From assembly GCA_021814825.1 (NCBI GenBank), contig JAKAHS010000001.1:16697-51113 (forward strand): a stretch of DNA of 34,417 nt. Reading direction: 5' to 3'. Made by a program: the position numbers and the translations under genes. Every line of letters starts with the position of its first letter. Positions within the stretch are counted from its first letter, which is position 1. Positions 12,819-27,388 of the stretch are shown one piece after another. The notes under the pieces were generated by a model, which did not search any database, had not been told where the DNA came from, and was given only the letters and a program-made list of their open reading frames with translations. This DNA comes from a bacterium (GTDB lineage Bacteria > Patescibacteriota > Minisyncoccia > Phycocordibacterales > SBAW01).

Positions 12819-14249
12819 TCATTCCTTGCGCGGAAAGAGATTCTCGGGCTTTTTATTTTCCTTGATCGCCGCAAGGATCTTCTCACTCGTCTGCGGCATG
12901 AATGGCGCGAGCATAGTCGCGATGGCGTGGAGCTGTTTAATACAGGAAAGGATCATTTCCTTCCCTTGTTCTGGCTCATCTTTCACAACCGCAAAGGGCT
13001 TCTCGCTAGCAATATACTCATCAAGCCCCGTGACATGTTCCCAAATGAAATCCATCGCTTTGTTGAACTGAAAGTCATCCATGGCGTCGACACGGACGTG
13101 AGGGGTTTCCATTCTCGCAATGTCGCTCGGCTCTAGGTGTGTCTCCGCGAGTTTCATTACGCGCGCAATCAAATTGCCGAGGCCGTTGGTGAGGTGGGCG
13201 GTGTAGTATTCGTGCACCGCATCAAGCGTGAGATCGGAATCTTCGGTCGGGCTCACATGACGCAGGAGAATGTAGCGCACCGCATCAGTACCATATTTCT
13301 CGACGAGGTCGAGCGGGTTGATGACATTCCCGAGCGACTTACTCATCTTCTGCCCGCCCGAGGTAATGAAGCCATGATAGAAGACGGTGTCAGTATTCTT
13401 GATGTCGGCCGACATGAGCATCGCCTGCCACATGAGCGACTGGAAGCGCACCTGATCCTTCCCTGCCACCTGCAGAGTCTGCCCATCTGTCCAGAACTTC
13501 TGGAAATTACCTTCGACGTCCTTGGGCCAACCGAGTGTGGAAATATAATTTGTGAGCGCATCGAACCACACGTACATCACCTGCGATTCGTCATCGGGAG
13601 TGGGGATGCCCCATGAGAGCCGAGATGCCTCGCGCGAGATGCTGAAATCTTCAAGACCGCCCTTCACGAAATTGATCGCTTCAATGCGGCGCCACTCCGG
13701 AGTGATGACATTGGGTTGCTCAAGATATGCGAGAAGTCTCTCTTGGTAATTCGAGAATTTGAAGAAATAGTTCTCTTCAGAGATCTCCTTGAGCTCAGCG
13801 TTGGGATGGAGCGGGCACTTGCCACCCTCGCATTCTTTTTCCGTCTTAAAGGATTCGCAGCCGACGCAGTAAAGACCGGCGTAGGTCTTCTTGTAGATAT
13901 CGCCGCCTGCTTCGCAGCGACGCCAGATATTCTCTGCCGCCTTGATATGCGCCGGATCGGTCGTGCGAATGAACGCGTCGTTGCTCAAGTCGAGCGCCGC
14001 GCCAAGCTTCTGAAATTCGGTTGCGTAGTGATCGACATAGTCTTGGACGCTCTGCCCCGCCCTCTGCGCCGCCTCAAATATCTTCTGTCCATGTTCGTCG
14101 GTGCCGGTCGAGAAAAAGACTTCGTCGCCCTGCGCGCGTCGCGCACGAGCGAGTGTATCAGCCTGTACGAATTCGAGCGCGTGCCCCATATGCGGACTCG
14201 CGTTCACATACGGCAGCGTGGTGGTGATATAGAAAGGTTTTCCGCCCAT
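12819..14249 (-). CDS. metG: Methionyl-tRNA synthetase (short form)
   Basis: FYITTTLPYVNASPHMGHALE (HIGH-class motif), Zn knuckle CVGCESF...C, KMSKSLGN. Confidence 0.92.
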   Translation of the reverse strand: MGGKPFYITTTLPYVNASPHMGHALEFVQADTLARARRAQGDEVFFSTGTDEHGQKIFEAAQRAGQSVQDYVDHYATEFQKLGAALDLSNDAFIRTTDPAHIKAAENIWRRCEAGGDIYKKTYAGLYCVGCESFKTEKECEGGKCPLHPNAELKEISEENYFFKFSNYQERLLAYLEQPNVITPEWRRIEAINFVKGGLEDFSISREASRLSWGIPTPDDESQVMYVWFDALTNYISTLGWPKDVEGNFQKFWTDGQTLQVAGKDQVRFQSLMWQAMLMSADIKNTDTVFYHGFITSGGQKMSKSLGNVINPLDLVEKYGTDAVRYILLRHVSPTEDSDLTLDAVHEYYTAHLTNGLGNLIARVMKLAETHLEPSDIARMETPHVRVDAMDDFQFNKAMDFIWEHVTGLDEYIASEKPFAVVKDEPEQGKEMILSCIKQLHAIATMLAPFMPQTSEKILAAIKENKKPENLFPRKE

Positions 14250-15315: not shown

Positions 15316-16692
15316 TTAGATCTTGCTCTTGATGAAGGAGGCGAGCTCCGCTATCTTCATGCGCGTCTGCTCTCCGCTGTCGCGGTCGCGCACCGTGACC
15401 GTATCGAGCAGCTCAGCCGTCTCACCCAGCGTATCGAAGTCGATCGTGATGCAGTACGGTGTCCCGATCTCATCCTGGCGGCGGTAGCGCTTGCCGATGT
15501 TGCCATTATCATCCCATGCGATCTGCGGGATCTCTTTCTTCAGCGCCTGGTACACCTCGCGCGCTCTTGCGACCAGCTCCGGCTTGTTCCGCAGAAGCGG
15601 CGAGACCATAGCCTTGACCGGCGCCAGCTTCGGGTGGAGTTTCAAAACAACACGCACCTCGCCGCCGAGATCATCCTCATGATAGGCATCTGCAATAACC
15701 GCAAGGAAGAGCCTGCCCATGCCCATCGAGGTCTCAAGGATCCACGGAATATATTTCTCTCCATTCTCCGGGTCGGTGTAGTTGAGATCGACGCCCGAGA
15801 ATTTCATGTGCTGCGTGAGATCATAATCGCTGCGATCATGAATGCCTTCGAGCTCGTCGAAGCCCCACGGAAATTTATATTCGACATCCCACGCGTCTTT
15901 GGCGTAAAAGACGAGATTCTCATGCTGCTTGAGGCGGAGATTCTCTTCTTTGATCCCGATCGAGAGGAACCAATTCCACCGATCTTTCTTGAGCGCCTCG
16001 TACGCCTCCTTGTTCTCGTGAGGTTTTATGAAAAGCTGCGTGTCTGCCTGCTCGAACTCGCGGCAGCGGAAAAGAAAGTTGCGCGGGCTGATCTCGTTGC
16101 GGAACGCTTTGCCGATCTGCGCGACGCCGAACGGGATCTTCGGCTGCATCGTGTCGACGATGTTCTTGTAGTCGAGGTAGATACCCTGGCACGCTTCGCC
16201 CGGAAGATAGACTGGCTCCGTCCCTTCGGAAGTGAAGTCGCCAAGATTCGACTTCACGAGAAGATTAAATTTCTTTGCTCGAGAAAAGTCATGTGCGCCG
16301 CATTTAGCGCAGGCGATCTGCGCGCGATGCGCGTCGAAGAGCGCGTTGATCTCGTCCTCACTCATCTTTTCATCGGCCGTGACGCCGATCGCCTCAAGCG
16401 CCTTGTCGACACGAATGCGTGTGTTGCACTTCTTGCACTCTGCCATCGGGTCGGAAAAGCCGGACGTATGCCCGCTCGCTTCCCACGCGCGCGGATTTTT
16501 GAACATGCCGGCATCAAGGCCGTAGTGATTCTCCTTGTCGTAGACATTCGCCTGCCACCAGGCTTTCTTGAGATTGTTCAGAAGTTCAACGCCGCGCGGG
16601 CCGAAATCGTAAATACCGGCCAGACCGCCGTAGATCTCGGAGCCAGGATAGACGAAACCGCGGCGCTTGCACAGCGACACGATCTTTTCCAT
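15316..16692 (-). CDS. glyQS: Glycyl-tRNA synthetase (homodimeric class II type)
   Basis: MEKIVSLCKRRGFVYPGSEIYGGLAGIYDFGPRGVELLNNLKKAWW and FRNEISPRNFLFRCREFEQ (motif 2). The start could instead be ATG 16716 (MELETSNGMEK...). Confidence 0.9.
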   Translation of the reverse strand: MEKIVSLCKRRGFVYPGSEIYGGLAGIYDFGPRGVELLNNLKKAWWQANVYDKENHYGLDAGMFKNPRAWEASGHTSGFSDPMAECKKCNTRIRVDKALEAIGVTADEKMSEDEINALFDAHRAQIACAKCGAHDFSRAKKFNLLVKSNLGDFTSEGTEPVYLPGEACQGIYLDYKNIVDTMQPKIPFGVAQIGKAFRNEISPRNFLFRCREFEQADTQLFIKPHENKEAYEALKKDRWNWFLSIGIKEENLRLKQHENLVFYAKDAWDVEYKFPWGFDELEGIHDRSDYDLTQHMKFSGVDLNYTDPENGEKYIPWILETSMGMGRLFLAVIADAYHEDDLGGEVRVVLKLHPKLAPVKAMVSPLLRNKPELVARAREVYQALKKEIPQIAWDDNGNIGKRYRRQDEIGTPYCITIDFDTLGETAELLDTVTVRDRDSGEQTRMKIAELASFIKSKI

Positions 16693-16930
16693 CCCGTTAG
16701 AAGTTTCTAGTTCCATAAAATTGAATGCATAAACCAACCAAATGCGGCTTATTCCGCTATCACGTCACAGACTCCGCTCGCGAACTTCTAACGGGATCCA
16801 TGAGATTCTCCTCCATATACAGCACACAGTATCACAACGAGACGACCGGCACTAGAACCCGCCTCTTGAGAGGCTGGTCACAACTCTGCAGCAAAAATCA
16901 GTTATGGAAGTCAAACTTTTTCTCTTGAAT

Positions 16931-18238
16931 CTAGGCTGATTGTATGGCAGTGGTGTGATACTGACCACCCGCAACGCTCGACCAGATCGTGCGCGCACCG
17001 ACCTGCACAGGGGAAGAGCGGTCGACGGTATTGCCAAGACCGAGCTGGCTGTAATTGTTATATCCCCATGCCCAGAGTGTGCCGTCTGTCTTTATGGCGG
17101 CGGTATGAAACCAGCCGTTCGCGACCTTCGACCACGTGGTGAGGGCGCCTACTTGCACCGGGGAGGAGCGGGTGGTGGTGTCGCCGAGACCGAGCTGGCC
17201 TCGACTATTAGACCCCCATGCCCAGAGCGTGCCATCCGTCTTGATGGCGGTGGTGTATACAGAGCCATTCGCAACGCTTGACCAGGTCGTAAGCGCTCCT
17301 ACTTGGACCGGGGAAGAGCGGTTGACGGCGTCACCAAGACCGAGTTGACCTGAGCTGTTGGCCCCCCATGCCCAGAGCGTGCCATCGGTCTTAAGGGCGG
17401 TGGTATGTCTAAGACCTCCCACAGCGCTCGACCAAGTCGTGAGAGCACCGACCTGCACCGGAGAGGAGCGATTGACGGTGTCGCCGAGGCCGAGCTGGCC
17501 GTAGGTGTTGTACCCCCAGGTCCAGAGGGTGCCGTCTGTCTTGATGGCGGCGGTGTGTTCGGCGCCATTCGCAACCTTCGACCAAGTCGTGAGAGCGCCT
17601 ACTTGGACCGGGGAGGAGCGGGCGGTGGTGTCGCCGAGGCCGAGTTGGCCGTTGCCGTTGTATCCCCAGGTCCAGAGGGTGCCGTCGGTTTTGATGGCGG
17701 TGGTGTGTACAGCGCCATTCGCAACGCTTGACCAGGTCGTAAGCGCTCCTACTTGGACCGGGGAAGAGCGGCTGACGGCGTCACCAAGACCGAGCGCACC
17801 TAAACTGTTGAGCCCCCACGCCCAGAGGGTCCTGAGGAGTGGGAAATTCGCCGCCACCTGCTGGCCGTACCAGGTAGTGCCCGCGTTGGCGGTGTAGAAA
17901 CGGAGCAGATCGGTGCTCCCTCCCGTGGTCGAGAGAGTTGGCGCCGCAGCTCCCGGCCACACCACGCTCGTTGGCCAGGTCGCCAGCCGGCTGCCAATGC
18001 TGTCCTGCGTCAGAAAGAGCGCGATCGTGCCGGTCTTGCCACTCGCCGGCGGGTTGGTGAACGTGAAGGTGCAGTTGCCCGTGAGCGTTATGTGGAAGAC
18101 GTTGCCCTGCGAGAGGTCGATGGTGTAGGAAGTGCCTGAGTTGGCGGTCACCGCCGTGTATGAGTAGCTCCTCAGCTCCGCATTCTGCAGCTGCTCAAGT
18201 CCGATGTCGACGCGATTCTTTGAGATCTTGATGACCAT
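16931..18238 (-). CDS. RCC1-repeat beta-propeller protein with an unassigned ~135-aa N-terminal domain
   Basis: Six consecutive ~50-aa blades of consensus LW(A/T)WGxNxxGQLGLGDxxxRSSPVQVGALTTWSxVANGxxHT(T/A)AIKTDGT. No signal peptide. N-terminal domain: MVIKISKNRVDIGLEQLQN...TLTGNCTFTFTNPPASGKTGTIALFLTQDS... Confidence 0.85.
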   Translation of the reverse strand: MVIKISKNRVDIGLEQLQNAELRSYSYTAVTANSGTSYTIDLSQGNVFHITLTGNCTFTFTNPPASGKTGTIALFLTQDSIGSRLATWPTSVVWPGAAAPTLSTTGGSTDLLRFYTANAGTTWYGQQVAANFPLLRTLWAWGLNSLGALGLGDAVSRSSPVQVGALTTWSSVANGAVHTTAIKTDGTLWTWGYNGNGQLGLGDTTARSSPVQVGALTTWSKVANGAEHTAAIKTDGTLWTWGYNTYGQLGLGDTVNRSSPVQVGALTTWSSAVGGLRHTTALKTDGTLWAWGANSSGQLGLGDAVNRSSPVQVGALTTWSSVANGSVYTTAIKTDGTLWAWGSNSRGQLGLGDTTTRSSPVQVGALTTWSKVANGWFHTAAIKTDGTLWAWGYNNYSQLGLGNTVDRSSPVQVGARTIWSSVAGGQYHTTAIQSA

Positions 18239-18416: not shown

Positions 18417-20351
18417 CTACTGCCCCACGATCTCCATGCCACGGGAGAAGCCGGGATCGCTCGTGAGAAGCGTCGTGAGCGGGTCGGCGTTTGCTGTCAC
18501 TTGTGCCTGCGCGAAGCGATCTTGACCCTGGAAATGGATCGCTCCCGTGAGCGCCGGCACAGAGCCGACCTGCGAAAGCGACGGCGTCAGTGATACTTGG
18601 AACGCTGCTTGCCGCGCAGGACTCGTGTAGCCGACACCCGCCTCCACGTCGCCAAGTGCCCAGGTGACCGTGCGCGTACTGTCATCGTACGATACCTGCT
18701 CGCCGCCCGCCGTTCCGGCGCCGATGAATGAGACGTAGGGCGGCAGCACGGTGCTCATGGTCGCGCCGGCGAGCGTGTTGGATGAATTCTTCACAGAAAG
18801 AACGACTGCATAAGTGGTGGCCTGCCCTACCCGAGGAGGAAGCGGGCCGCTTTCACTAAACGGACCGGTGAAATGGAGCGCTTGCGCCGAAGCGGTAACT
18901 GCCGAGGCAAGCTCGATCTTCGTGCTAGCAACCGTCGTGATATCCTCCGGCACGCCGGCATCCTGGCGCGTCCCATGCACGGTGAGGTTCAGCGTCACTT
19001 CAGGATTAGAGAGCGGCACGCTGCCGGGCGGGAGCGTTGCAAGAGAGAATTGGAACGAACCGCCGGCGCCCGGCGCAACCGACGCGAGCTGTGAATTCTG
19101 GTCGCTCCCCCACGTAATCTGCTGTTTGTTGGAATCATAGAAACCGTTGATCGCGTGCACCGACGATCCGTCGATCGCGGAGCCGGAAAGCGACAGCGTG
19201 AACGTTACGTTCGATATGGTCTCCGTCAGATTATTCTGCCATGCGATGTTGCCCGAGATCCCTCCGCCAAGCGGCTCCGCGATCGTCGCCCCCGTATTGC
19301 CACCCAGCGAGATCGTCGCGCCGATGAATGGCTTGCGCACGGTGACCGTCTGCGGGGCCGAGAGGAGCGGGACCGCAAGCGATGTTTCGGTCGGATCGCT
19401 TTCCGTGCCGGCGAGGAAATGGAACACGCGCTCGTCGCCGTCTTCGCCAGTGAGCACGCCGGAGATGTGTATGGTCTGGCTGCCACCCGGCTCGAGCGTG
19501 CCCAAATGCCAGAGCGTGTTCCCCGGTGCCGCCGCCGGCGACACTGAGCTCACCGCGAAGCCGAACGGGTACTGCACTTCGACCGCCACATTCGGAAGCG
19601 GCGAGGTGGCGTTGGATGACACCTCGACGTCAAGCGAGAATGGCTGTCCTGAGATCGCTTCGGTGGGCGATGAAATAGACACGGAGATCGGCGATGATCC
19701 GATCGTGAACATGGTATCGACCTGTTTGACGAAGACCGAGTTGGAACCGGCGAGCTGATATTCGAGCGTGACCGACACTTTTTCTTGCGAGCCGCTCGCG
19801 CCGAAGAACAGCGCCGATGATGTTTGTTTGATCTGTTGCCCGGGCGTTATTGTGCCAAGTGAGATGCGCTCATTGGGCAGCGCCACCGTCGGATCATTCT
19901 CTGAGCGCGTGCCGTCTGGATAGGTGACCACCAGATCGGCCGCAAGAAGGGACGTGTTGTTGCGATTCTGAATGATGTACTGGAGCGTCGCGCCCTTTCC
20001 GCTGTCGATAAGCGATGGAGCGACGATCTGGACATCGATGTTCTGCGGAGATATGGTGTTGAGTCCGCCCCACAGCGCCCATCCCGCGACCGCCGCCGCG
20101 ATGACGAAGAACACGAATGAGCCCCACAGGAAGTACCATGCGGCGGTATGTTTTGGTGTGCGTTTCTCCATAAGCGTAAGCGGTGCGAGCGGCTTTTCTG
20201 GCGCTTCTTCTTTCATACCATCCCACGAGCGAGGCGCTTCTTTGCGCATCGAAGAAAGCGGTGAGCGCGCGGTCGGTTCGACCTCCGGCGCCTGCGTGCG
20301 TGAATATAATTTACTTTTGAGCCTTTCGACTGGCGGTTCCCGATCGGGCAT
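18417..20351 (-). CDS. Membrane-anchored protein with multiple extracytoplasmic beta-sandwich (DUF11/CARDB-like) domains
   Basis: Cytoplasmic N-terminus (MPDREPPVERLKSKLYSR...), one TM helix (YFLWGSFVFFVIAAAVAGWALWG), then about 540 aa of Ser/Thr/Gly/Val-rich beta-type sequence. ATG 20351 is preferred over the ORF-track start at 20375. Confidence 0.6.
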   Translation of the reverse strand: MPDREPPVERLKSKLYSRTQAPEVEPTARSPLSSMRKEAPRSWDGMKEEAPEKPLAPLTLMEKRTPKHTAAWYFLWGSFVFFVIAAAVAGWALWGGLNTISPQNIDVQIVAPSLIDSGKGATLQYIIQNRNNTSLLAADLVVTYPDGTRSENDPTVALPNERISLGTITPGQQIKQTSSALFFGASGSQEKVSVTLEYQLAGSNSVFVKQVDTMFTIGSSPISVSISSPTEAISGQPFSLDVEVSSNATSPLPNVAVEVQYPFGFAVSSVSPAAAPGNTLWHLGTLEPGGSQTIHISGVLTGEDGDERVFHFLAGTESDPTETSLAVPLLSAPQTVTVRKPFIGATISLGGNTGATIAEPLGGGISGNIAWQNNLTETISNVTFTLSLSGSAIDGSSVHAINGFYDSNKQQITWGSDQNSQLASVAPGAGGSFQFSLATLPPGSVPLSNPEVTLNLTVHGTRQDAGVPEDITTVASTKIELASAVTASAQALHFTGPFSESGPLPPRVGQATTYAVVLSVKNSSNTLAGATMSTVLPPYVSFIGAGTAGGEQVSYDDSTRTVTWALGDVEAGVGYTSPARQAAFQVSLTPSLSQVGSVPALTGAIHFQGQDRFAQAQVTANADPLTTLLTSDPGFSRGMEIVGQ

Positions 20352-20456
20352 AGCACTATCATACCGCACCAACACAAAAGCTGAACATCAAAGCCCGGTA
20401 TATCCTCCATAAGGACTCGGCCTGTTTGTTGTCAGACTCCAGCCGAGGACGCTCTA

Positions 20457-21056
20457 TCACAACCCAGTCGCGCTGAGCGACTCGTTGATCGATCGGATGA
20501 GCGCGCTGCGTGAAGTGGCAGCCTGCGCGGCAAGTTCCATCGACAGAGCGCTGTCGCCGATGAATGGCGCAAGCTCCGGCGTCTTCGGAAGATAGCCGAG
20601 ATGGTGGAGCGTGCGGAGCACGAGCACCGACTCGATGCCGTCGACCTCTTCGCGCGTACGCGCCGAAAGCAGAAGACTGATGCCTTCTGCAACTTGATCA
20701 AAGAGAACAGGCGAAGGCTCTTCGCCATGAATGAGGCGCGTGAGAAGTTGCAGGATCTTACCGATCGCATGCCGCGCGTAGCGCGAACTTTCTGCGAATT
20801 GCGTGCGGTCCTCCTCGCATCGGTGGCCGTTCACGATCTTCCACTCATGCTTGCCGCGCACCAGCGAAAAGCGCGCGACGGTAAGCGGTTCGAGAAAATA
20901 GCGCAACTTCGATCGTGAGAGGCGGCTGCTCTGTGCTTTGGCATACAGAAGACCGCGATCGCGCGTGAAGAGCGCCACGAGCGTGTTCGCTTCTCCGACG
21001 CCGCGCTTGCCAAGCACGATCCCGGAAGTGGTAAGAATGGTGTGACCGAGACTCAT
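20457..21056 (-). CDS. recO: DNA repair protein RecO
   Basis: N-terminal OB-like segment GIVLGKRGVGEANTLVALFTRDRGLLYAKAQSSRLSRSKLRYFLEPLTVARFSLVRGK plus a helical C-domain. Its start overlaps the ileS stop (ATGA at 21053-21056). Confidence 0.7.
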   Translation of the reverse strand: MSLGHTILTTSGIVLGKRGVGEANTLVALFTRDRGLLYAKAQSSRLSRSKLRYFLEPLTVARFSLVRGKHEWKIVNGHRCEEDRTQFAESSRYARHAIGKILQLLTRLIHGEEPSPVLFDQVAEGISLLLSARTREEVDGIESVLVLRTLHHLGYLPKTPELAPFIGDSALSMELAAQAATSRSALIRSINESLSATGL

Positions 21057-24000
21057 CGTGTGAGAGTGAAGCGCACGGGCATGTTGAGCGATGGATGAAT
21101 GGGAAGATCGGCAGCACGCATGATCTCAAGCGCGCCGAGACTGGTCTGCACAAGGAAGTCAGCTTTGTGCGACTCGAAGAACGCTTCCCACTCTTCGTCC
21201 GCGTCGATGCGCAACGTCGGCCGGTCTGCGACCGAGAGGCCTTCCTTTTTGCGTAGATCTTGTATGACTCGCACAACGTCGCGTACCAGCCCCTCCTCGC
21301 GCAGCTCATCGGTGATCGCAATGTCGAGCCACACATCCTCTTCCATGTCAGTGTCGGTCTCGATGACCTTCACGTTCACTTCATCGGCGATGATGGCGCG
21401 CAGCACTTCGTCGTCCGGAAGCTCGCGCACCTTAAGAAGTGCGAGCGGCTGGCGCACCTTGATGCCGGCATCGTCGCGACGCTCAAGCGCGCGTGATGCC
21501 ACCGCGCGAACGATTGCCATGTCCGCGAGGATCTTCTCATCAACCGCGATATTCTCCGGCCATCTCTCCAAGTGGACGCTCTCCTTCTCCCCGCCGACTC
21601 CTTGATACATACTTTCGGCGATAAATGGCATCAGCGGTGCCACGAGTTTTGCGAGCGCAAGCAAGATCTCGCGCTGCGTTGCGAGAGCGAACTGCTTGTC
21701 GGTGGCATCCGCACCAGCACGCACGCGGTCGCGCGAGCGGCGCACATACCACGTCGAATAATCTTCGATGAACGGGCGCAGTGCTCGCACGGAGCGCGGC
21801 ATGTCGTACGCTTCCATCGCGTCGGTCATCTCGCGCACAAGCTCTCCCAAGCGCGAGCGAACCCAATGATCAAGCGGATGCGGGCTGTTCTCGCTTTCGG
21901 TCACTCCGTCGTATTCCTCTTTATAGAGCTCGAAGAATTTATATGAATTCCACAAGATGCCGATGACGCGGTTGTGCGCCTCGCGTACGTCTTCATCGCG
22001 AAATGCGAAATCCTCGGCCTGCATCACCACGCTTCCCATCATGTAAAGGCGTAGTGCATCGGCACCGTATTTATCGAGCAGCGCGAGCGGATCGGTGTAG
22101 TTGCCCTTGCTCTTGCTCATCTTGGAGCCGTCGGCGGCAAGCACATTGCCGGTCACGACCGCAGCGCGGAACGACAGGCGATCGAAGAGCGCGACCGCCA
22201 TCGCATGCATATAGTAGAACCACGCGCGCGTCTGCCCCACATACTCGGCAACGAAATCACCCGGGGCGCGCTTCTCGAATGCTTCCGTGTTCTCGAATGG
22301 ATAATGATATTCGGCGAACGGCATGACGCCCGACTCCGCCCAGCAATCGATGACTTCCGGAATGCGGGTGTACTCTGCGCCATCGTCTCCAAGGAGCGTG
22401 ATCGAGTCTATGTACGGACGATGCAGGTCGAGATCGAATTTCGCGTTGAGCGGAAGCGGCGCGAACGGGATCTCCATCACTTCGCCCGGCGCTGCCGCGA
22501 GATTCACTTCGCTCATGAGGTCGTCGCCGCGCGCGCCAGAGAGTACTTCGAGGAGTGACTTGAAGCCGACCGCGTGCGACACTATGACCACCGTCTTGTC
22601 CGCGTACGTTTTTTCATAGCCGTAGATCGCTTTGCCGAAACGGATCTTCGCTTCTTCAAAGCTTTCGCCGTGATCAGGATGCACGGTGTACCAGTCAGGC
22701 CGCGCAAGCGCGCTTATCCACTCCGATTTCGGACGGCCGTCATATTCGCCGAAATTGAATTCAGCGAGCTGTGGGTCGATGACGATCGACTGTTCATCAA
22801 GACCAAGCTCATGCGCCATGATCTGCGCAGTTTCGCGCGCGCGGCGCACCGGTGAGGTAACGAGCACCAGCGATTTCTCCGGCGCTGCCGCCGTGCTCTC
22901 GCGGATGGTGTGCGCCGCGCGCGCCGCCTGCTCCCGACCCTTTTCCGTCAGCGGGTAGATGCCTTCGGGGTCGGCGGTGTAGATGCCCTTGCTCATATAT
23001 TCCGACTCGCCGTGGCGCACGATGAAGTAGCGATTGCCGGCGGTCTTCGCGCGCTGCTTGAGCTCCTCCAGAGAGCCGACCACCATGTAGCGACCGCTCT
23101 GCGCTTTCCAGATCGGCAAGGGAGAGGCCCAGAAACGATTGCGCGAAATGGTCCAGTCGGGCGCGTTGTCGACGATATGTTTGAAACGACCGTGCTTGAG
23201 ATGCTCCGGCACCCATGTGATCTTTTCATTCTCCGAGAGCAGCTTCCCTTTTATCTTTTGGATATTGATGAACCACGACGAGACCGCGTTGTAGACGAGC
23301 GCGGTCGCGCAGCGATAGCAGTGCGGATATGAGTGTGTGTGCTCCGCTTTCGCAAAAAGCAGCTCGCGCTTCTCGAGATCTTCGATGATATGCTTGCCGC
23401 CCTTTTTGTAATACATGCCGACGATGAACTCCGGCGCCATCGAATTGTACGAACCGCTCGCGTCGAGCAGCTGGATCATCGGCAACCCTTCGCGTGCTCC
23501 GAGCGCGAAGTCGTCTTCGCCGTACATCGGCGCGATATGCACGATGCCGGTGCCCTCTTCGGTCGTGACGAAATCGCCCGCATACACGCGATGTGCCACG
23601 CCCGACTTTTCTTCGCCCGCAAAGTCATAGAGCGGTTCATATTCGAGACCGAGAAGATCGATGCCAGAAAATTCGTAGCCAGCATTCGGGTCTGACAAAC
23701 CAAGGGCCGACATTCTGTCTTTGGCGACGAGATAATATTTCCCACTTTCATATTGAACGGCTCGATATGAAATATCTTTACCAACCGCAAGCGCCATGTT
23801 TCCCGGCAACGTCCACGGCGTGGTCGTCCATGCAAGGATCTGAACATCCGAACCCATACCAAGACTAAACAATTCGGGCGTCGGTTTCAGTTTGAACTTC
23901 ACCGTCACCGCCGTATCCGTCACATCCTTGTACGTGTTATCCATCGCGATCTCCGCTTTTGCCAGCGGCGTCTCGCAGTGTGGACAGTACATGAGCACCT

Positions 24001-24541
24001 TGCGGCCTTCATAGAGAAGCTCCTTCTCATGCAAACGCTTCAGCGACCACCACACGCTCTCGATGTACGAGTTGTCCATCGTCTTGTACGAGTTCTTGAA
24101 GTCGACCCATCGTCCGATGCGCTCGACATATCTCTCCCACTCGCGCTCGAACTCAAGCACGCTTGAGCGCGCCGCTTCGTTGAACGCCGCGATACCTACC
24201 TGCTCGATATCTTTTTTGGTCTTGAGTCCGAGCCGCTTCTCAATGAGCGATTCGATCGGAAGGCCGTGGCAGTCCCACCCCCACCGACGGCGCACGCTAT
24301 ACCCGCGCATCGTCTTATAGCGCGGCACGACATCCTTCACGATCGACGACAGCAGCGAGCCATAGTGCGGAAGCCCGGTCGCAAAGGGCGGGCCATCATA
24401 AAACACGAACTCGCCGTGCGGCGCATCTTTCCCTACCGACTTTTCGAAAATTTCGCGCTCCTTCCAAAACGCGAGCACAGCCTCCTCGCGCTGTGCTATC
24501 TCCGTCTTTTCTTGCGTCTTTGTTTTCTCCCCCTCAGTCAT
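21053..24541 (-). CDS. ileS: Isoleucyl-tRNA synthetase (type 2-like) carrying an inserted histidine-phosphatase domain
   Basis: FYDGPPFATGLPHYGSLL (HIGH-class), WGWDCHGLPIE, TTPWTLPGN (editing domain), DWTISRNRFWASPLPIW, KMSKSKGN. ATG 24541 (MTEGEK...) is preferred. Codons covering roughly 22436-23039 encode the inserted domain described in the findings. Confidence 0.93.
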   Translation of the reverse strand: MTEGEKTKTQEKTEIAQREEAVLAFWKEREIFEKSVGKDAPHGEFVFYDGPPFATGLPHYGSLLSSIVKDVVPRYKTMRGYSVRRRWGWDCHGLPIESLIEKRLGLKTKKDIEQVGIAAFNEAARSSVLEFEREWERYVERIGRWVDFKNSYKTMDNSYIESVWWSLKRLHEKELLYEGRKVLMYCPHCETPLAKAEIAMDNTYKDVTDTAVTVKFKLKPTPELFSLGMGSDVQILAWTTTPWTLPGNMALAVGKDISYRAVQYESGKYYLVAKDRMSALGLSDPNAGYEFSGIDLLGLEYEPLYDFAGEEKSGVAHRVYAGDFVTTEEGTGIVHIAPMYGEDDFALGAREGLPMIQLLDASGSYNSMAPEFIVGMYYKKGGKHIIEDLEKRELLFAKAEHTHSYPHCYRCATALVYNAVSSWFINIQKIKGKLLSENEKITWVPEHLKHGRFKHIVDNAPDWTISRNRFWASPLPIWKAQSGRYMVVGSLEELKQRAKTAGNRYFIVRHGESEYMSKGIYTADPEGIYPLTEKGREQAARAAHTIRESTAAAPEKSLVLVTSPVRRARETAQIMAHELGLDEQSIVIDPQLAEFNFGEYDGRPKSEWISALARPDWYTVHPDHGESFEEAKIRFGKAIYGYEKTYADKTVVIVSHAVGFKSLLEVLSGARGDDLMSEVNLAAAPGEVMEIPFAPLPLNAKFDLDLHRPYIDSITLLGDDGAEYTRIPEVIDCWAESGVMPFAEYHYPFENTEAFEKRAPGDFVAEYVGQTRAWFYYMHAMAVALFDRLSFRAAVVTGNVLAADGSKMSKSKGNYTDPLALLDKYGADALRLYMMGSVVMQAEDFAFRDEDVREAHNRVIGILWNSYKFFELYKEEYDGVTESENSPHPLDHWVRSRLGELVREMTDAMEAYDMPRSVRALRPFIEDYSTWYVRRSRDRVRAGADATDKQFALATQREILLALAKLVAPLMPFIAESMYQGVGGEKESVHLERWPENIAVDEKILADMAIVRAVASRALERRDDAGIKVRQPLALLKVRELPDDEVLRAIIADEVNVKVIETDTDMEEDVWLDIAITDELREEGLVRDVVRVIQDLRKKEGLSVADRPTLRIDADEEWEAFFESHKADFLVQTSLGALEIMRAADLPIHPSLNMPVRFTLTR

Positions 24542-24621
24542 ACATAAGAATATATAGGTTATTAGCCCAAAACAAAAGCCGCGCCAAACACCTACCAAAA
24601 GAAAGCTGCTGCGCTCTCCCA

Positions 24622-24675
24622 TGTCTCACCCACACTTATAATTCACGAACGTGAATTATAAGTGTGGGTGAGACA
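24622..24675. repeat. 54-nt perfect palindrome (P1) between the PaaX-like gene and ileS
   Basis: TGTCTCACCCACACTTATAATTCACG-AA-CGTGAATTATAAGTGTGGGTGAGACA: 26-nt perfect arms, with a TATAAT hexamer in each arm. Confidence 0.9.
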
Positions 24676-24691: not shown

Positions 24692-25258
24692 TCATCGTAG
24701 ACCAAAGATCTTCTTGAGATCGTTCCCGCCCTCTAACTCCTCGACGATCATGTACAACAGCTGCTTACCAGTGCGCAGATCATGCTTAAGCAGTGTCACC
24801 ACATCTTCACAATCATATGGATAGATCCAGACACTATTCTGCAGAAGAACAAACCCCATATCTCGTAACGTAAAGCGTACTTTATCCCGAAGCGATCTAC
24901 GAGTCTCGGGGATATCGAAAATGAGCACCCGCCATTTACCATCCCATCGTTTCGATTTTTTCAGTTTATATTCCGAATATTCAAGATGGGCGAGGTATTT
25001 CCTACCTTTCGAGGTGACGCGCAAATGTCCGCCGACTCGCTCAAGATATCCACTATGCAGAAGGCGATCGCGCGAGCGGTTGATGACCTCCTTCTGTCGC
25101 TTGTGCGGCATGAGTCCGGTCTTTTCCATAAGACCAAGCACCTGCGGAACGACAAAAGCTGTCCCGACCATCCCAGTGACGGCAGCAGAGGCAAGAATGA
25201 ATTTACCGACAGAATGCCGGCGCGCCCTTTGTCCTGATCTCTTCTCAAGATTGCCCAT
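24692..25258 (-). CDS. PaaX-like / Cas2-fold-like putative transcriptional regulator with a hydrophobic N-terminal segment
   Basis: wHTH-like RDRLLHSGYLERVGGHLRVTSKGRKYL, followed by WDGKWRVLIFDIPETRRSLRDKVRFTLRDMGFVLLQNSVWIYPYDCEDV, which is the PaaX C-terminal/Cas2-like pattern. ATG 25258 (MGNLEK). Confidence 0.65.
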   Translation of the reverse strand: MGNLEKRSGQRARRHSVGKFILASAAVTGMVGTAFVVPQVLGLMEKTGLMPHKRQKEVINRSRDRLLHSGYLERVGGHLRVTSKGRKYLAHLEYSEYKLKKSKRWDGKWRVLIFDIPETRRSLRDKVRFTLRDMGFVLLQNSVWIYPYDCEDVVTLLKHDLRTGKQLLYMIVEELEGGNDLKKIFGLR

Positions 25259-25296
25259 ACACTTATAGTACACGTTCGTGAATTATAAGTGTATGG
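25255..25296. repeat. 42-nt imperfect palindrome (P2), related to P1, overlapping the start codon of the PaaX-like gene
   Basis: CCATACACTTATAGTACACG-TT-CGTGAATTATAAGTGTATGG: 20-nt arms with 2 mismatches. It shares the exact 16-mer CGTGAATTATAAGTGT with P1 (24650-24665 vs 25277-25292). Confidence 0.85.
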
Positions 25297-25677: not shown

Positions 25678-27351
25678 CTACATCTCATCGGGTGCGGAAA
25701 TACCGAGCAGCCACAAGCCGTTTTTGAGCGTTTGGCGCACGGCACTCACGAGTGCGAGTTTGTCTGCAGCATCTGGCGTGCCGAGGATACGCTCCTGCGC
25801 ATACCAAGAGTTGAAGGCGCTTGAAAGCTCGATGAGGTACTGTGCGACGAAGTGAGGTTCGTACAGCTCTGCAGCGCGCTCCACCACCTCCGGGAAACGC
25901 GGCAAGAGTCGCTCGATGTCGGGCGCGATGCCGCCGCGAACATGCGCGGACGACGCAACGTTCTCCTCTTCTGCCTTCTTGAGCACGGACACGCAGCGCG
26001 TATGCGCGTATTGGATGTAGGGGCCGGACTCGCCTTCCAGCGAAAGTGACTTCTCCGGATCGAAAATGATGTTCTTACCCGCGCCCTGCTTGAGCACGGA
26101 GAACTTTATCGCGGCGACCGCGATCTGCCGTGCGACCTCCTCGGGGTTCGCCACGCCGCGCTCCCCCATCTTTTCTTTCGCCGCCATGATCATCTCATCG
26201 ACGAGCGACTCGCCGGTGATGACGTTGCCTTTGCGCGACGACATCTTGCCTGACGAGAGTTGCATCATGCCGTGATGGATGTGCTCGAAGATATCCTTCC
26301 ATTCAGGATGCACGAGGCCAAGTGCCACGAACACCACATTGAAATATGCTTCTTGTTCAAGCGCGGTCACGGTGATCGAGCGATCGAATGTGCGGCGCTC
26401 GCGCTTCATTTCGGCGAGACCGATCTCTTTCGCTTCGTAGGTCGGCAATCCTTGCTTGTTGATGAAGACGCGGGTGTGAAGCTTCGGGTCATGCTCTTCC
26501 CCATGGAAAACTATCGCGCCGGCGCTCTCCACGAACAACTCCGGATGAGCGCGCACGACTTCAAGACCTCGCGGTCCGGTCTCGCTTTCGAAAAAGTATT
26601 CATCAAAAGTTGTTCCGAGAAGCGCATAGATATCTTCAAAATGCTTCAGGGTCTCCTCGCGTCCCCAGACGTAGAGCGCGTTGATCTTTTCATCGCTCTT
26701 TTCATACACTTTCTTATTGATCTCTTCAATCTCGCGCTTCGCGTCCGCACTCTCTTCGTAAGCGGTGGCGCCGCGCACATATGCTGCGCTGATCTGCGCG
26801 ACCGTCGGCTGCGTGAGATCTTCCTGCAGGAGCCCCCAGATCGCTTTGGCGACATGCGGGCCGACATCGCCTTGGTAGTTCGCGCGGATGACAGCGGCGC
26901 CCGAGCGCTCAAGGAGCCGCGCGACGCTCTCACCGATGGCATTACTCATGAGGTGACCGATATGAAATTCTTTGAACGGATTCGGATCGGTGTATTCGAC
27001 CATGATCGTCTTGTCCGACCAAGCGTCATTGCTCCCCCACCGGTCGCCTTTTTCGCGCGCCACTGCGATCGCGGCGGCGCGTGACTCGCTTGAGAGGAAG
27101 ATGTTGAGAAAACCAGGACCGGCGATCTCGATCTTTTCCACGCCAGGGATATGCGCCTCCTCAAGCGCCGCGCGCATGGCGACTGCAACATCGCGCGGGT
27201 TCTGACCGAGCTTTTTTCCTGCAACCAGCGCCGCATTACAGGCGTAGTCCGCACCGGTCTCCGCAGGCGGATATTCAACGACAAAAGCCTCATCGGGAGC
27301 ACCCAACTGCGCGAGCGCCTCGCGTACCGCCGCTTCTATCTTTTCTTTCAT
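25678..27351 (-). CDS. argS: Arginyl-tRNA synthetase
   Basis: PNPFKEFHIGHLMSNAIGES (HIGH), GKMSSRKGN, C-terminal DALR-type anticodon-binding domain ending ...APDEM. ATG 27351 (MKEKIE). Confidence 0.92.
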   Translation of the reverse strand: MKEKIEAAVREALAQLGAPDEAFVVEYPPAETGADYACNAALVAGKKLGQNPRDVAVAMRAALEEAHIPGVEKIEIAGPGFLNIFLSSESRAAAIAVAREKGDRWGSNDAWSDKTIMVEYTDPNPFKEFHIGHLMSNAIGESVARLLERSGAAVIRANYQGDVGPHVAKAIWGLLQEDLTQPTVAQISAAYVRGATAYEESADAKREIEEINKKVYEKSDEKINALYVWGREETLKHFEDIYALLGTTFDEYFFESETGPRGLEVVRAHPELFVESAGAIVFHGEEHDPKLHTRVFINKQGLPTYEAKEIGLAEMKRERRTFDRSITVTALEQEAYFNVVFVALGLVHPEWKDIFEHIHHGMMQLSSGKMSSRKGNVITGESLVDEMIMAAKEKMGERGVANPEEVARQIAVAAIKFSVLKQGAGKNIIFDPEKSLSLEGESGPYIQYAHTRCVSVLKKAEEENVASSAHVRGGIAPDIERLLPRFPEVVERAAELYEPHFVAQYLIELSSAFNSWYAQERILGTPDAADKLALVSAVRQTLKNGLWLLGISAPDEM

Positions 27352-27388
27352 ATTCACAAAGTAGCAGGATTTCACTCAAATCGCCATC

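Follow-up and report, generated by a model that had tools for sequence, protein, structure and literature searches.

A histidine phosphatase domain nested in the CP3 region of isoleucyl-tRNA synthetase in Patescibacteria

The DNA stretch analyzed here (the window; 34,417 nucleotides of contig JAKAHS010000001.1, GenBank assembly GCA_021814825.1, from a bacterium of the Patescibacteriota, Minisyncoccia) contains an ileS gene whose product, an isoleucyl-tRNA synthetase (IleRS), harbors a complete histidine phosphatase domain within connective polypeptide 3 (CP3). In the reading that we favor, and to which we assign a probability of about 0.5, the protein would be bifunctional, composed of a normal type-2 IleRS and an active small-molecule phosphomonoesterase that were fused for co-expression and not for a precise coupling of their activities. 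Few enzymes are as conserved as the aminoacyl-tRNA synthetases, and additions confined to particular lineages have frequently been signs of new biology. In the present case, a second and apparently active catalytic center of an unrelated class is nested in the IleRS of a large share of a major, little-understood bacterial radiation.

The ileS open reading frame (ORF; 21053..24622, minus strand) encodes 1189 residues from its first, in-frame ATG at 24622 and 1162 residues from the ATG at 24541. Because an ortholog with 90% identity starts at the second ATG, the 1162-residue numbering was adopted; the same start and length had been given in an earlier note on this stretch (the original prediction) and are borne out by the ORF call. 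All peptide blocks quoted in that note are present, with RHGES encoded exactly at 23003-23017. The frame is continuous and IleRS motifs resume after the insert, so that the note was right to see an in-frame domain insertion and not a neighboring gene. In the NCBIfam search, the product reached 829.3 bits with TIGR00392 (ileS; cut-off 621.4) in two stretches, with the break at profile position ~507, and the MupA and MupB models remained below their cut-offs. Pfam tRNA-synt_1 (PF00133) is likewise split around the insert and is followed downstream by Anticodon_1 (residues 891-1034) and DUF5915 (residues 1070-1127). The best relatives in the PDB are the type-2 enzymes (IleRS2) of Priestia megaterium (8c8u, E 4e-207) and Thermus thermophilus (1ile, E ~1e-204 to 1e-207); matches to type-1 IleRS (IleRS1) are weaker (8c9e, E 2e-86; 8c9e/1ffy range, 1e-82 to 1e-86). 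The product is closer to IleRS2 than to IleRS1, which by sequence makes it a type-2 IleRS, the type linked to mupirocin resistance. A full-length AlphaFold2 (AF2) model (predicted local distance difference test [pLDDT] 83.5, predicted template-modeling score [pTM] 0.74) has its best Foldseek match in IleRS2 (8c8v, E 4e-74). As far as its signatures tell, the IleRS part looks functional: KMSKS, H-x-G-S and the editing motifs are intact, and H335...D344 of the editing domain is invariant in the homolog alignment, as is the motif listed in Table 1. The fourth position of the HIGH signature is Ser in 105 of 121 close homologs. Most other type-2 IleRS loci, with an insert or without, read HYGH, and the clade-wide loss of the second His of HIGH is unusual.

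The identity of the insert emerges from profile, residues and predicted fold. Pfam His_Phos_1 (PF00300) matches residues 506-671 with E 4.3e-29 (102 bits; cut-off 21.7), and the catalytic residues align and are conserved (Table 1); the complete set of branch-1 histidine phosphatase hallmarks named in the original prediction thus withstood the profile check. When the domain was modeled alone with 24 homologs, AF2 yielded an autonomous alpha/beta fold with pLDDT 92.3 and pTM 0.90, and in the full-length model the insert and its junctions form an alpha/beta domain at ~85-95 pLDDT. A Foldseek search with the domain-only model returned PspA (4ij6), Rv3214 (2a6p), GpgP (Rv2419c, 4qih), CobC (6e4b/6nru) and PhoE (1ebb/1h2e) at template-modeling (TM) scores of 0.73-0.78 and probability 1.00 over ~200 residues; TIGAR is also among the ~200-residue branch-1 histidine phosphatases found near the insert. 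Judged by sequence and model, the insert is a complete branch-1 histidine phosphatase of the small 'broad-specificity' PhoE/CobC/PspA type.

The insert fails every NCBIfam equivalog cut-off, with scores of 64.3 vs. 162.9 for CobC (TIGR03162), 41 vs. 350 for PspA, 71.6 vs. 225 for dPGM_arch, 39.3 vs. 316 for PRK01295, 30.9 vs. 261 for GpmB and 82 vs. 326 for the RNase H/acid phosphatase. The designation 'PGAM-like' in the original prediction therefore applies at the level of the superfamily and not below it, since the phosphoglycerate mutase, CobC and PspA models lie far below their cut-offs. A strict phosphoglycerate mutase (dPGM/GpmA) supplying glycolysis was rejected because the equivalog scores are far too low. 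The insert comprises 199 residues and its nearest structural neighbors are phosphatases of ~200 residues, not mutases of 230-250 residues; the residue that follows RHGE-x-x is Met in the window protein, at a position where the mutase consensus has Asn. A Nomurabacteria genome (GCA_020632445.1; locus L090, 1-654) has, near valS, a gene for a cofactor-independent phosphoglycerate mutase. This enzyme argues weakly against the insert being the cell's mutase, the genome being a different one from that of the insert-bearing Nomurabacteria locus. Assignment of a substrate from the nearest solved structures failed, as the best sequence match of the insert to them has an E of only 5e-9 (Shb17, TIGAR, PhoE, CobC) and its structural neighbors have many different specificities. 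An RNA-binding signature was rejected as well, since the inserts are acidic: that of the window protein has an isoelectric point (pI) of 5.3 and a net charge of -8, and the mean pI of the insert family, 6.1 vs. 6.4 for standalone relatives, is no more basic.

The insertion site can be delimited by alignment to the solved enzyme. Residues 16-498 and 703-1081 of the window protein align to 8c8u, to its residues 11-478 before the gap and from 485 onward after it. Hence ~6 residues of the solved IleRS2 structure correspond to ~204 residues of the window protein, which agrees with the ~200 residues noted earlier in place of a short loop. The limits first given for the insert, 22436-23039, hold to within 1-4 nucleotides at each end and are not codon-phased; the codon-phased limits are 22439-23035. 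In published domain maps, ScIleRS has CP2 at 420-458, the CP2-3 linker ARDWNVSRNRYWG and CP3 at 459-526, and CaIleRS has CP3 at 473-534; CP3 is a peripheral, topologically variable element that joins CP2 to the second Rossmann half and bears a Zn-binding motif in T. thermophilus (PMC7955072, PMC7191050). The stretch from P-x-W to E-V-x-D-x-W, which brackets the site, spans 50-88 residues in insert-less relatives (33 loci), 240-269 residues with one insert (25 loci) and ~430 residues with two inserts (4 loci). In L012, L013, L015, L019, L023, L025, L031 and L033, CxxC is kept on either flank of the insert. From this arrangement it follows that the domain entered the CP3 Zn knuckle between its two halves; the clade of the window protein has since lost all four CP3 cysteines. 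The original prediction had placed the domain in the catalytic domain of IleRS, which is correct as to the host enzyme and not as to the site, since CP3 and not the Rossmann core itself received the insert. N503 and the C-terminal P-x-P-x-N junction are conserved in the homolog alignment, and the junctions read ...TAG/NRYF... and ...PLNAK/FDLD.... The termini of the insert enter and leave CP3 between the former knuckle halves via short conserved junctions, and in the model the insert is an autonomously folding domain in a surface loop.

Hundreds of related uncultured bacteria, spread over a large part of the Patescibacteria, share the nested architecture. In a homolog search that covered 5.8 billion proteins, the best 120 matches of the full-length protein (1092-1238 residues, 54-100% identity) all carry PF00133, PF00300 and the anticodon and C-terminal domains. 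Their named sources are Candidatus Kaiserbacteria, Paceibacterota, the Parcubacteria group, Minisyncoccia and the Patescibacteria group, and the databases list them solely as 'class I tRNA ligase family protein', 'isoleucyl-tRNA synthetase' or 'hypothetical'. The insert alone was used in a search of 1.84 billion cluster representatives (50% clusters). Among the nearest 147 representatives with a scorable domain, the host was IleRS in 65 and valyl-tRNA synthetase (ValRS) in 4, and the domain was standalone, in tandem or fused to RNase H in 78. In a GTDB scan, 39 of the best 80 type-2 IleRS loci contain the insert, the named lineages being Nomura-, Taylor- and Wolfebacteria, Paceibacteria and Peregrinibacteria; insert-less among the scanned loci are Magasanik-, Uhr-, Falkow-, Doudna-, Gottesman-, Nealson- and Staskawiczbacteria, DPANN archaea, spirochaetes and Latescibacteria. 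On a crude, unsupported neighbor-joining tree, the insert-bearing IleRS cores are patchy and not cleanly monophyletic, and several gains or losses of the insert must be assumed from the sequences.

Mapped on the window protein, the IleRS inserts occupy at least four sites (A, A', B and C; Table 1). RHG is kept in 186-187 of the 190 site-A copies and the full catalytic set in ~99% of them, at a divergence down to ~30% identity. Nearly all copies at all sites retain RHG/R/E/H; the exceptions are P0336_d1 and P0311_d2, two ValRS domains that lost Glu and/or the second His. Copies that differ in site or host share only 30-48% identity, which dates the insertions as old events and not as recent mobility. 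Some IleRS carry two domains, in tandem in CP3 or at separate sites (P0218, P0223 and P0267 with 1379-1419 residues; L035, L047, L054 and L057 from Peregrinibacteria/Peribacteria with 1465-1487 residues). Two domains are also seen in P0274, P0302, P0313, P0319 and locus L030. In this whole set of two-domain proteins, which reach 1380-1490 residues, the separate sites are those after HYPFEN and just before the anticodon-binding domain. The domain is not confined to IleRS. P0336 (1538 residues) is a bona fide ValRS (849 bits vs. a cut-off of 704) with two His_Phos_1 domains, and 73 of its 120 closest relatives carry 1-4 such domains, their named sources being Peregrinibacteria and Gracilibacteria. 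The main ValRS site lies between DWCISRQ.W.GH.IP.W and D.WFSSG and is the homologous CP3. A ValRS fragment, P0192, contains four copies. The IleRS fragment P0245 (1066 residues) has an in-frame IS200/REP-associated tyrosine-transposase domain in its editing domain (residues 326-472; 81.3 bits vs. a cut-off of 80), then His_Phos_1 in CP3 and thereafter a GNAT acetyltransferase domain; it may be a stack of insertions or an artifact of gene calling.

Phosphatases of the same family also occur as neighbors of ileS. In Staskawiczbacteria (locus L056, 2938-3579), a gene for a standalone His_Phos_1 protein of 213 residues lies 5 nucleotides upstream of ileS on the same strand and directly follows argS. 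The protein matches the hidden Markov model (HMM) of the insert family with E 7.8e-53 and has all catalytic residues, and the adjoining ileS is insert-less with an intact CP3 CxxC...CxxC. L083, an unrelated metagenome contig, contains argS, a small ORF, a standalone His_Phos_1 gene (P0020, 3913-4482) and ileS; it ends at IleRS residue 417, before CP3, so that the insert state is not visible. The two standalone phosphatases are 34% identical to each other. In the window the order is argS, a PaaX-like gene and ileS. The argS-phosphatase-ileS neighborhood suggests a functional association, and such a neighboring phosphatase gene is a plausible source of the nested copy. Around the more distant standalone relatives P0030, P0033 and P0050, no synthetase neighbors were found. 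Taken together, the recurrence in ValRS, the several sites, the up to four copies and the neighbor-gene form suggest that the phosphatase has been kept together with these synthetases by selection.

In the bifunctional enzyme that we favor, the IleRS part would charge and proofread tRNA-Ile as usual. The insert would hydrolyze a phosphomonoester via a phospho-H510 intermediate, with R509, R567 and H656 holding the phosphate and E594 serving as the general acid. The substrate would most likely be a small phosphorylated metabolite or nucleotide and not tRNA, which is favored by the acidic nature of inserts that are no more basic than their standalone relatives. Fusion would secure co-expression with an essential, constitutively expressed synthetase in a minimal genome, the domain being accommodated in a permissive loop. 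Probably the phosphatase was at first encoded by an operon neighbor (argS - phosphatase - ileS), and its nesting came later. Since the same domain is found at four scattered IleRS sites, one of them next to the anticodon-binding domain and distant from the catalytic cleft, its exact position relative to the tRNA 3' end would not be critical, and the known structural plasticity of CP3 likewise favors an independent enzyme. That the link between insert and IleRS goes beyond accident is indicated by the 65 IleRS hosts among the 147 representatives, the 73 of 120 ValRS relatives with copies and the standalone copy beside ileS in L056. Several observations weigh against this reading. The insert is above the cut-off of no characterized phosphatase subfamily. 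If co-expression alone mattered, the hosts should vary beyond IleRS and ValRS, and up to four copies in a single ValRS are hard to explain by gene economy. The conserved and confidently modeled junctions could reflect a fixed orientation, and with it mechanical or catalytic coupling. Finally, no phosphatase neighbor was found at three insert-less valS loci, and the operon-neighbor origin rests on two loci.

A coupled function, rated slightly below the independent enzyme, is a tentative alternative in which the phosphatase would act on something made or used by the synthetase and tethering would be the point of the fusion. Coupling to aminoacylation had been raised in the original prediction as a speculation and is still one. 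The insert might remove a 3'- or 2'-terminal phosphate from damaged tRNA-Ile/Val and thereby enable charging, hydrolyze AMP or PPi from activation and from the ATP-costly editing cycles common to IleRS and ValRS, or strip an inhibitory phosphate placed on the synthetase by a toxin kinase. Such coupling would fit the restriction of the hosts, among the nearest relatives, to two editing paralogs and the recurrence of the domain at several sites in 1-4 copies, nearly all with intact RHG/R/E/H. Moreover, IleRS and ValRS have the same main insertion site, CP3, which adjoins the CP2-3 linker on its C-terminal side; the linker's homologous stretch of yeast IleRS (453-ARDWNVSRNRYWG-465) lines the tRNA-A76/reveromycin pocket (PMC7955072). 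Further points in its favor are that two divergent lineages have retained a standalone copy just upstream of ileS, and that among the NCBIfam models the insert matches best to the phosphatase half of an RNase H/acid phosphatase fusion, again with a nucleic-acid enzyme as partner. Arguing against coupling are the acidic inserts without added basic surface, the scattered insertion sites, including site C, and the many Patescibacteria and all other bacteria that manage without the insert. We know of no branch-1 histidine phosphatase that acts on RNA ends or PPi, which also counts against it. The broader proposition that Patescibacteria repeatedly built the phosphatase into IleRS and ValRS for its action on reaction partners of the synthetase itself (tRNA 3' ends, AMP/PPi, enzyme-bound phosphate) is doubtful. 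Less probable again is a non-catalytic role, with the insert as a sensor of a phosphorylated ligand that tunes IleRS allosterically or as a structural brace that replaces the lost CP3 Zn knuckle. The clade of the window protein lacks all four flanking cysteines, which other insert-bearing lineages keep; the junction residues are conserved and confidently modeled; and the inactive copies P0336_d1 and P0311_d2 are tolerated in ValRS. However, neither a brace nor a binder needs the catalytic set that the site-A copies have preserved over such divergence, and retention of the Zn knuckle in several insert-bearing lineages means that the insert did not arise as its replacement.

A selfish or neutral origin, by which a mobile, intein-like or transposon-borne segment invaded permissive loops of essential genes without benefit to the host, has very little to recommend it. 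It would account for the presence of the domain at several sites and in two host genes, for the patchy distribution on the crude IleRS tree and for P0245 with its transposase and GNAT domains. Yet the Pfam search revealed no Hint/intein or endonuclease domain in the protein, the junctions G-N and N-A-K/F by our reading lack the Cys/Ser/Thr nucleophiles needed for protein splicing, and the low identity between copies excludes recent mobility; an intein or mobile element was rejected on these grounds. The GC content of the insert equals that of the flanks. Relative to the 90% ortholog, dN/dS is 0.21 in the insert, 0.16 in the N-terminal half, 0.25 in CP1 and 0.06 in the C-terminal half. Between homologs the insert is 34-42% identical, the C-terminal domain 38-39% and the Rossmann halves 70-82%, which makes the insert and the C-terminal domain the two fastest-evolving parts of the protein. 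Judged from these sequence comparisons, the insert is under purifying selection concentrated on the enzymatic active site, which is unrelated to mobility. That a chimeric assembly or a frameshift joined a separate phosphatase gene to ileS is next to impossible. No support for it was found, L056 and L083 showing only that phosphatase and ileS can be neighbors. The same protein, with 100% identity, is encoded in GCA_021842985.1 (contig JAKBYI010000032.1), and the 90% ortholog in the ENA metagenome ERZ27237541 has the same gene order (SHMT, EamA, DUF2914, ArgRS, IleRS, RecO). Three independent assemblies thus have the same nested arrangement, and more than 180 homologs have IleRS sequence on both sides of the insert. 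On this basis misassembly and frameshift were rejected and the chimera, which the original prediction had named as a concern, was excluded.

Among known systems, the closest to the host are the solved IleRS2 of P. megaterium (8C8U/8C8V) and T. thermophilus (1ILE), which are homologous on both sides of the insert and have the same order of domains: Rossmann, CP core, CP1, CP2, CP3, anticodon-binding and C-terminal. They differ in having ~6 residues where the window protein has the phosphatase, in the Zn-knuckle cysteines (CEGC...CPVC in P. megaterium), which the window protein has lost, and in HIGH, which reads HYGS in the window protein. The small branch-1 phosphatases PhoE (1EBB/1H2E), CobC alpha-ribazole phosphatase (6NRU/6E4B), PspA phosphoserine phosphatase (4IJ5), GpgP (4QIH) and Rv3214 (2A6P) share fold, size and the RHG/R/E/H set with the insert; they are only 21-26% identical to it and are free-standing, in contrast to the nested domain. 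NCBIfam NF040702 (ileS_w_GNAT) is a curated IleRS with a second, unrelated enzymatic domain, and P0245 has both His_Phos_1 and GNAT. The window protein, however, scores 311 bits against the cut-off of 1999 and has no GNAT/acetyltransferase match in Pfam. Of the NCBIfam models, that of the bifunctional RNase H/acid phosphatase PRK07238 gives the strongest match to the insert (E 6e-23, over profile positions 171-350); this enzyme likewise pairs a nucleic-acid enzyme with His_Phos_1, and the RNase H fusions P0233 and P0330 are among the close relatives of the insert. In PRK07238, unlike in IleRS, the fusion is end-to-end and the partner is RNase H, and the insert remains below its cut-off, as noted above. 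The CP1 editing domain of class Ia synthetases resembles the insert in that its two ends lie near each other and in its nesting within the connective-polypeptide region of the Rossmann fold, but it serves the fidelity of aminoacylation and is synthetase-specific, whereas His_Phos_1 is a general metabolic phosphatase fold. To our knowledge, this fold has no role in aminoacylation. Synthetases are recognized as frequent hosts of domain insertions, and nested accessory domains are known (PMC13114784). In the literature searched on synthetases, phosphatases and the Candidate Phyla Radiation (CPR), no description of a histidine phosphatase nested in a synthetase was found. Nested accessory domains as such are therefore not new; a histidine phosphatase as the insert appears to be undescribed and is absent from database names. 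The remark in the original prediction that its author was aware of no such synthetase accordingly holds for the papers searched, and has to be qualified by the orthologs in sequence databases, where the architecture is widespread in Patescibacteria. Coupled activities would represent a previously unknown catalytic accessory function of synthetases, new in translation; uncoupled activities would illustrate clearly how ultra-small genomes accommodate enzymes in permissive loops of proteins that are essential. Annotation is affected too, the proteins being named only as tRNA ligases, and so is the use of IleRS and ValRS as phylogenetic markers.

Table 1. Features of the ileS gene of the window and sites of His_Phos_1 insertion in IleRS, mapped on the 1162-residue window protein. 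Counts for catalytic residues refer to 121 aligned sequences (the window protein and its homologs).
Feature	Residues	Nucleotides	Strand	Remarks
ileS, type-2 (eukaryote/archaeal-like) IleRS with nested phosphatase	1162 + stop	21053..24541	-	TIGR00392; PDB relatives
IleRS N-terminal part: first Rossmann half, CP core, CP1 editing, CP2, CP2-3 linker, first CP3 half	1-502	23036..24541	-	Aligns to 8c8u 11-478; domain names from the ScIleRS/CaIleRS papers
HIGH signature, variant H-Y-G-S	59-62	24356..24367	-	Sequence and homolog alignment
CP1 editing-site motif WTTTPWTLP	238-246	23804..23830	-	Invariant in homolog alignment
CP2-CP3 linker DWTISRNRFWA	462-472	23126..23158	-	Homologous to the yeast IleRS stretch lining the tRNA-A76/reveromycin pocket
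Nested His_Phos_1 domain	503-701 (199)	22439..23035	-	Starts at invariant N503, ends at the P-x-P-x-N motif
RHG motif, R509-H510-G511	509-511	23009..23017	-	H510 predicted phospho-accepting nucleophile; R 120/121, H 121/121
R567 of the S-P-x-x-R-x-x-E-T motif	567	22841..22843	-	Phosphate pocket; 121/121
E594	594	22760..22762	-	Predicted general acid/base; 121/121
H656	656	22574..22576	-	Second active-site histidine; 120/121
IleRS C-terminal part: second CP3 half (Cys ligands lost), second Rossmann half with KMSKS, anticodon-binding and DUF5915 domains	702-1162	21056..22438	-	Aligns to 8c8u from 485 on
KMSKS signature	807-811	22109..22123	-	K807, S809, K810 and S811 invariant
Insertion site A	498/703			CP3; ~190 sequences
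Insertion site A'	715/726			Second knuckle loop
Insertion site B	~750/757			After HYPFEN
Insertion site C	873/885			Just before the anticodon-binding domain

The genes around ileS in the window include three further synthetases. Within 15 kb of the minus strand lie the genes for MetRS (12819-14249; 476 residues), a class II enzyme with an HGTP anticodon domain (15316-16737), IleRS (21053-24541) and ArgRS (25678-27375; 565 residues). MetRS and ArgRS of the window gave no match to the insert-family HMM and no His_Phos_1 match in Pfam. A search of the window for regulatory RNA or tRNA near ileS yielded no Rfam match and no tRNA. A recO-like gene (20457-21056) has a start ATG that overlaps the ileS stop (ATGA, 21053-21056), which suggests translational coupling of the two genes; the ileS-recO order is the same in the 90% ortholog. 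Directly upstream of ileS, 24692-25273 on the minus strand encodes a small protein with a PaaX central Cas2-like domain (PF20803, E 2e-22). This PaaX-like gene is also upstream of ileS in GCA_021842985.1 and was not called in the locus of the 90% ortholog (L081). On the same strand, 16931-18238 encodes an RCC1-repeat protein of 435 residues (E 2e-75) and the adjoining 18417-20375 a protein of 652 residues whose DUF11/CLIPPER-like match is weak. The two proteins are probably secreted or exposed at the surface.

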